Sequence record: OP795442
Source: Escherichia phage A7_1
Length of the DNA: 64,000 nucleotides
Reading direction: 5' to 3' (one strand)
This document shows, in pieces, positions 29,364 to 30,561 of the stretch. Every line of letters starts with the position of its first letter. Position 1 is the stretch's first letter. Position numbers and translations under genes: made by a program. The notes under the pieces were generated by a model. It worked only from the letters and a program-made list of their open reading frames with translations. It did not search any database and was not told the origin of the DNA.

Positions 29364-30561
29364 TTATTCCGGCAATTCCAAGGGTGTAAACTCGAAGAGT
29401 TGCATACCTATGTAACCTGGGAGCAATCCTGCACTGCTATTACCGACACCATATAGGATTCCTTTATCTACATAGTAGTGTGCAACATAGCCACCTTTTA
29501 GTGATGAATATTCTCCACCATATGGTACAGTCGCTGCAAGCTGTGTAAATACTGAATATGAAGACTGGAATTGTGCGCCTGCGCCTTGTAAACTACCCGT
29601 AGCTGCTCCTGTATAGTATACCCTTTTTTCTTCCGGGTGGAGAATACGGGCGCTAAAGTGACCAATGTACAAAGGAGGTAATGAAGGTACATTGGAAAAT
29701 ACCAACGTTGGCGCAACAACGTTTATATTACCCGAGTTGTTTACCCCGAGACTTCCTGACACACTTTGTCCTTGTGCGTAAACGGAGTAACTACCATTTG
29801 AAAGCACAATCCTAAAAAATCCAAACGTTGTCGCAATTATGTCAACTACCGTACCACCGCTAATTTGGCTTTGCCTAAGCCAAGTTGTATTGCTTGAAGT
29901 TGTTCCATTTTGTCCATTATTTGAAAGACCTGCGACATAAACTTCACCACTTTTGGTCAGAAGATAGGATGTATCGTATGTTGACCAGTCAAGATCTATT
30001 TTTTCAACATTCGTGAAGTCAGTCCTTAAGGTTAAGGTTTTTACCGTAGAGGTATCTCCTTTCCCCAAACCCCCTGAGTTGTTAGTACCAGGTTTTTACC
30101 GTAGAGGTATCTCCTTTCCCCAAACCCCCTGAGTTGTTAGTACCACACATTGCATACTGCCCATTGGTAAAGACAACAGCCAGATTACGATGCCCGATCG
30201 CCACCTGCTTAACTATAAGTCCTCTAGGTATAGGCATATCGGCAGTTACATCCGTGGGTGTCCTTATCGTAGTCCCATAACCCGTATTGAAATATTGATT
30301 AAACCCCATAAACAGCCACCTACCTGCGGTTGTCCTCATGAGAACAGCACTAGATGCAGTCCATATCTCTTCCACTTCTCTTGCCAGATAGCGCCATGTT
30401 GTAGCATTTCCCCCTGTACCGCTGAAGTATTGATCTCCTATACCATAGACGTTACCGGAGTTCATAAGCACAACAATGCCACCATTGCCAGCGGCAAACT
30501 TCTTAACGTTACCTTCCACCACTGGCAATTCGGCAGAGCCTAAGTTCATCATTTCTAACAT
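29364..30561 (-). pseudogene. RCC1-like beta-propeller paralogue 3, split by 55-bp tandem duplication
   Basis: track ORFs 30082..30561 and 29364..30068 both encode GKGDTSTVKT at junction; one repeat copy removed restores about 380-aa frame. Confidence 0.55.
30036..30145. repeat. perfect 55-bp tandem direct duplication
   Basis: 30036-30090 identical to 30091-30145. Confidence 0.9.

Follow-up and report, generated by a model that had tools for sequence, protein, structure and literature searches.

The 55-bp tandem duplication in an RCC1-like gene of the deposited phage A7-1 genome is very probably an artefact of contig circularisation

As deposited, the sequence of Escherichia phage A7-1 has a perfect 55-bp tandem duplication that splits an RCC1-like gene, number three in a row of three such genes. 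With a probability of roughly 0.93, this duplication is an artefact of circularisation and rotation of the assembled contig. The physical A7-1 DNA would then carry a single copy of the 55-bp unit, and the intact 380-aa virion protein would be made. Almost certainly, A7-1 has neither a pseudogene nor a switch at this site. This reading follows from the length of the repeat, which equals the k of the assembly, from the assembler that was used, from the position of the repeat at the wrap of the locus tags, from the absence of an annotated CDS, from the one-copy form of the relatives and from the defects of the sibling genomes at their own contig joins. The sequence analysed is a stretch of 64,000 nucleotides of record OP795442, called the window below, and positions given with no other name refer to it.

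The features at and around the duplication are the following.

30091-30145, minus strand: copy 1 of the 55-bp unit, the first in gene orientation, TGGTACTAACAACTCAGGGGGTTTGGGGAAAGGAGATACCTCTACGGTAAAAACC; identical to 30036-30090
30036-30090, minus strand: copy 2 of the 55-bp unit, identical to copy 1; it would be the overlap (k = 55) shared by the two ends of the metaSPAdes contig, left in without trimming
30082-30561, minus strand: ORF of 159 aa, N-terminal fragment of RCC1-like paralogue 3; the tag absent from the series, A71_1, corresponds to it
29364-30068, minus strand: ORF of 234 aa with a TTG start, C-terminal fragment of the same paralogue; the in-frame continuation once one copy is removed
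29325-29348, minus strand: terminator-like hairpin AAACCGCC-TTCG-GGCGGTTTTTT, read by eye from the sequence
28989-29153, minus strand: A71_273 (UZZ64079.1, 54 aa), the last-numbered gene and the last one annotated before the join
30571-31707, minus strand: A71_2 (UZZ64080.1, 378 aa), second RCC1-like paralogue, with which annotation resumes past the join
31721-32920, minus strand: A71_3 (UZZ64081.1, 399 aa), first RCC1-like paralogue

A sequence comparison found positions 30036-30090 and 30091-30145 to be the same letter for letter. The two copies are directly adjacent, with no spacer, and are 100% identical. Tandem Repeats Finder reports the same structure at 30035-30145 (period 55, 2.0 copies, 100% matches) with a score of 222, the highest in the window, so that the perfect duplication given in the preliminary description is confirmed by both checks. 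The run of period-55 identity is 111 nt long, which is 2 x 55 plus one flanking base. As the run extends only 1 nt beyond the two copies, there is essentially no microhomology at the repeat. Among the other runs of period identity in the 64 kb (periods 8 to 599), the longest reaches 21 nt, and a third copy of the unit was not found in the window; the 55-bp repeat is therefore far beyond chance. Nor does the window contain a paralogue of the unit from which gene conversion or recombination could have produced the repeat. The junction from copy 1 to copy 2 reads ...CTACGGTAAAAACC followed by TGGTACTAACAACTC..., and the 30-mer across the two copies is CTACGGTAAAAACCTGGTACTAACAACTCA. The old contig ends would meet at 30090/30091. 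Besides the 55-bp duplication, the only dispersed exact repeats of at least 25 nt in the window are two pairs, at 14656/16780 (spacing 2124 nt) and at 54815/60883 (spacing 6068 nt).

The duplication shifts the reading frame and splits the gene on the minus strand. The 159-aa ORF (30561 to 30082) ends with ...GKGDTSTVKTWY (tail ...TVKTWY), its TAA stop codon being two codons past the repeat junction, and the 234-aa ORF (30068 to 29364) begins with MGKGDTSTVKT. Both the end of the upstream ORF and the restart of the downstream ORF with the GKGDTSTVKT peptide, as first described, are present in the ORF translations. When one copy is deleted, a continuous ORF of 380 aa results, close in length to the adjacent genes (378 and 399 aa) as had been expected, and the intact protein would contain the peptide ...GDTSTVKTLTLR.... 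The hairpin at 29325-29348 lies directly past the stop codon of the split gene, and this predicted terminator shows that the 3' end of the unit is otherwise intact.

The affected gene is, as the preliminary description had it, the third of three RCC1-like paralogues. The three adjacent proteins (399, 378 and the restored 380 aa) are 27-30% identical to each other, and each gives a match to phrog_4219 ('regulator of chromosome condensation'), with E = 3e-35 to 4e-50. Over residues 14-377 the restored protein matches this family (E = 3.3e-35), and it passes the Pfam RCC1_2 cut-off (31.4 bits against 22); its match to the RCC1-like domain PF25390 (E = 2e-25) stays under the curated cut-off (90 against 150 bits). 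It thus shares the phrog_4219 match with its two neighbours and agrees with other RCC1-like phage proteins. The first paralogue has additional weak matches to tail-protein phrogs (phrog_11922 and phrog_20500). In phage W70, the RCC1-like proteins W70_237, W70_238 and W70_239 were found in virions by mass spectrometry (PMC11370258). The PHROGs category of the RCC1-like proteins is 'DNA, RNA and nucleotide metabolism', yet these W70 orthologues are in virions. The RCC1 name comes from homology only, and the W70 proteins are virion components, not chromatin regulators; the 'chromosome condensation' name is probably misleading for these phage proteins. The size of the tandem array varies from one to four copies across related phages. 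Three copies are present in the window and in the siblings closest to it, four paralogues are found in two relatives (L014 4921-9590 and L015 4918-9590), and two others have a single one (L016 8448-9590 and L018 1915-3057).

When SPAdes is run with --meta, its default k series is 21, 33 and 55, with no auto-extension. At 55 bp, the repeat unit is as long as the last k of the assembler with which this genome was built. The genome of A7-1, a Septuagintavirus, was deposited as OP795442 with 144,828 bp and 273 ORFs; it was assembled de novo with metaSPAdes at default parameters, and the ORFs were called by RAST (PMC11370258). The default settings of metaSPAdes lead to a 55-bp overlap in the assembly graph. 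Circularly mapping genomes that are assembled by metaSPAdes with default k-mers routinely end in overlaps that are 100% identical and longer than 50 nt; by these overlaps a contig is recognised as circular, and they are to be trimmed (PMC11291292). The Phage Annotation Guide names apparent circularisation as a common artefact of phage assembly. The A7-1 repeat resembles such an untrimmed SPAdes or metaSPAdes end overlap in its length (the final k), its 100% identity, its position at the contig join, its absence from independent assemblies and the match of assembler and parameters. It differs in one respect: the usual overlap stands at the two ends of a contig, whereas that of A7-1 has been internalised by the rotation to terL and so mimics a tandem duplication inside a gene.

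The position of the join can be read from the locus tags. The tag layout of A7-1 was rebuilt from exact protein look-ups and not from the OP795442 record. Along the window the tags run A71_206, A71_208 and A71_217, then A71_272 (28486-28953) and A71_273 (28989-29153). After the wrap they continue with A71_2 (30571-31707, UZZ64080.1), A71_3 through A71_10 and A71_11 (34804-35307, UZZ64089.1). It is precisely at the split gene that the numbering jumps from 273 back to its beginning, with A71_1 missing. The protein accessions of A71_273 (UZZ64079) and A71_2 (UZZ64080) are consecutive, with none between them, so the record was deposited without a CDS over 29364-30561. In line with this, neither the 159-aa nor the 234-aa fragment has an exact match in a collection of 15 billion proteins. 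The record of the sibling phage A5-4 starts at the large terminase gene terL, which has the tag A54_217; the genomes were therefore rotated after annotation. Rotation after annotation together with the wrap of the tags at the split gene places the joined ends of the A7-1 contig inside this gene.

By combining these observations, it is possible to propose how the duplication arose. MetaSPAdes, with its final k of 55, would have assembled the phage genome into one contig whose first 55 bases equal its last 55, and the ORFs would have been called and numbered on this unrotated contig. The genome would then have been rotated so that the record starts with the large terminase gene. On joining the old ends, the 55-base overlap would have been kept, leaving the same 55 bases twice in a row. 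The old contig ends would by accident have fallen inside the third RCC1-like gene, where the extra 55 bases would act as a +1 frameshift and split the gene on paper.

Related phages contain only the one-copy form. The comparison included 12 distinct relatives: five GenBank records (A73, W70, A5-4, LTH01 and UPEC06, all Vequintavirinae, found by megablast against a phage collection) and seven Logan read assemblies (SRR31617738, SRR25909051, SRR34878090, SRR7716743, SRR35836810, SRR7716744 and SRR34902443). All 12 align to the one-copy form over 355 of 355 positions with zero gaps, which bears out the comparison with related genomes named earlier as a check, and none of the 12 carries two copies. 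Every one encodes an intact protein of 379-383 aa at this locus; in the five GenBank records it is annotated as a single gene of 1140-1143 nt. The restored 380-aa protein is 100% identical to A73_254, W70_239 and A54_119, and the DNA of the restored gene has 1-3 differences in 1143 nt from that of A73, W70 and A5-4. A search of IMG/VR, the JGI metagenomes and the GTDB genomes with the two-copy junction and the unit gave no match, and these three collections likewise yielded no source contig that begins and ends with the unit. No independent assembly of A7-1 was found in them or in Logan.

Two of the sibling genomes have defects at their own joins. In A73 (OP778609), an exact 55-bp direct repeat is present at the wrap from A73_264 to A73_1 (L001 8769-8823 and 8872-8926). 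Its copies are 48 nt apart, and the spacer is an inverted piece of the gene for RCC1-like paralogue 3; counting an overlap of 6 nt, the foreign stretch matches over 54 nt, about the length of k. The whole defect (L001 8769-8926, equivalent to about 86,504-86,661 of the OP778609 record) is a 103-bp insertion (55 + 48). At the equivalent site, the sequences of W70, UPEC06 and the window are single-copy and free of the insert. The A73 structure is probably a chimeric de Bruijn edge combined with an untrimmed overlap. It was also considered as a real invertible segment, a reading that was rejected: no inverted repeats were found that link the sites at ~25.25 kb and ~30.0 kb. In A5-4 (OP744025), the wrap from A54_276 to A54_1 falls in the DNA polymerase gene, where a 1-nt deletion at ~46,092 (L007 ~46,082-46,092) splits the polymerase into A54_276 and A54_1. 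A73 and LTH01 have the base that is missing in A5-4 and a single DNA polymerase CDS of 2337 nt, and one DNA polymerase CDS is present at this site in A73, W70, LTH01 and UPEC06. At the W70 join, where a 55-bp repeat was sought, no defect was seen; the pipeline thus does not fail every time.

The preliminary description had offered three readings without ranking them, namely an assembly artefact, a recent pseudogenisation and a reversible slippage switch. The first of these is supported by the match to k = 55, the position at the tag wrap, the join defects of the siblings and the one-copy relatives; the evidence speaks against the other two. That the repeat and the contig join lie at the same place is not by itself absolute proof of an artefact. 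A real repeat of length 55 would form a repeat vertex in the k = 55 graph and could attract a contig break, so a genuine duplication might itself have produced the join at this position. It is for this reason that a small share of the probability is kept for a real and very recent 55-bp duplication in the A7-1 stock, which would have inactivated one of the three RCC1-like virion proteins. Pseudogenisation would in that case be tolerated through the redundancy of the paralogues. The perfect identity of the copies suits a recent event, and with arrays of one to four copies in the relatives the loss of one protein may be tolerated. Known pseudogenes that arose in phages by a frameshifting tandem duplication are similar in their head-to-tail arrangement, in a length that is not a multiple of three, in the truncation of the ORF and in being revertible by deletion of one copy. 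In contrast to these, the A7-1 repeat has the length of k, lies at the join, lacks microhomology (1 nt at the junction) and occurs in no relative. A real duplication would have to equal the k of the assembler by chance, to fall exactly at the wrap of the tags and to be absent from all 12 relatives, while defects the size of k or of one base are found at the contig joins of sibling genomes. Recent pseudogenisation is therefore an improbable account of the split gene.

A variant of this reading takes the duplication as physical in the A7-1 stock and the site as a genuine hotspot of DNA ends or rearrangement in Septuagintavirus. It draws on the chimeric insert of A73, which stems from the window equivalent of 29959-30012, at a distance of just 24 nt from the repeat of A7-1, and on the clustering of contig breaks next to a non-coding junction. 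Of the four contig breaks of the siblings, three lie in a stretch of about 6 kb (window equivalents 24.3-30.1 kb), at ~24.3 kb (W70), ~25.25 kb (A73) and ~30.05 kb, and this cluster adjoins a gene-poor convergent junction of roughly 1.8 kb. Physical termini might lie in the non-coding region at window equivalents of 24.3-26.4 kb. The chance that this variant is correct is slim. The clustering itself might stem from physical termini or from a site prone to chimera formation. A literature search found no published physical termini for the genus Septuagintavirus. For KPP-1, a distant member of the subfamily, a direct terminal repeat of 514 bp has been reported, which suggests that termini near the cluster might bias the breaks of the graph.

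The gene-poor region lies at about 24,900-26,200 of the window, where blocks of plus- and minus-strand genes converge, and the relatives have a gene-free gap of 1.7-1.8 kb there. It contains short tandem repeats at 25077-25100 and 25328-25366 and CCCCCT three times at 25649-25665, and hairpins are present at it, for example 24876-24896/24960-24980. This region is a candidate regulatory or terminus region.

Much less probable still is a reversible ON/OFF switch by strand slippage, with a population that toggles between one and two copies. Deletion between direct repeats is an established and mechanistically plausible process, and deletion between the perfect 55-bp copies would restore the frame. 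Slippage from one copy to two has nothing to act on, since the one-copy allele is free of internal repeats and its flanking homology is 1 nt. The copy number is also invariant, with one copy in 12 of 12 relatives, and the switch presupposes a physically real duplication, which is itself unlikely. Phase-variable contingency loci consist of many copies of units of 1-10 nt and vary between strains. The A7-1 repeat has in common with them that a change in copy number would toggle the frame, but it is one 55-nt unit in two copies, found in one record only. For want of a substrate and of variation in copy number, the switch was rejected. Gene 60 of phage T4 is translated with a 50-nt hop by translational bypassing, and expression despite the insert through programmed bypassing or frameshifting, to which A7-1 bears a formal resemblance only (all codons of copy 1 recur unchanged 55 nt downstream, and past the junction there is a stop), was rejected as having next to no probability because nothing of it is conserved, the protein is contiguous in all relatives and the duplication would again have to be physically real.

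The circularisation artefact has consequences for the databases. OP795442 probably carries 55 spurious bases and is without a CDS for a virion protein. With the correction, the A7-1 genome would measure 144,773 bp, and the 380-aa protein that it encodes would be the same as W70_239. The published difference in gene content of A7-1 was most likely produced by these 55 bases. A correction would concern three GenBank records (OP795442, OP778609 and OP744025) and one published statement. The case also provides a rule for scanning other genomes: a perfect tandem duplication whose length equals an assembler k (55, 77, 99 or 127) and which stands at a wrap of the locus tags should be presumed an artefact until the reads say otherwise.

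The W70 genome differs from the window near its own join. It is without ~6.6 kb of the window (17537-24175, against L006 ~3365-3377), and the breakpoint is inside W70_1, roughly 110-230 nt from the W70 contig join. This absence may be a real deletion or sequence missing near the contig ends.
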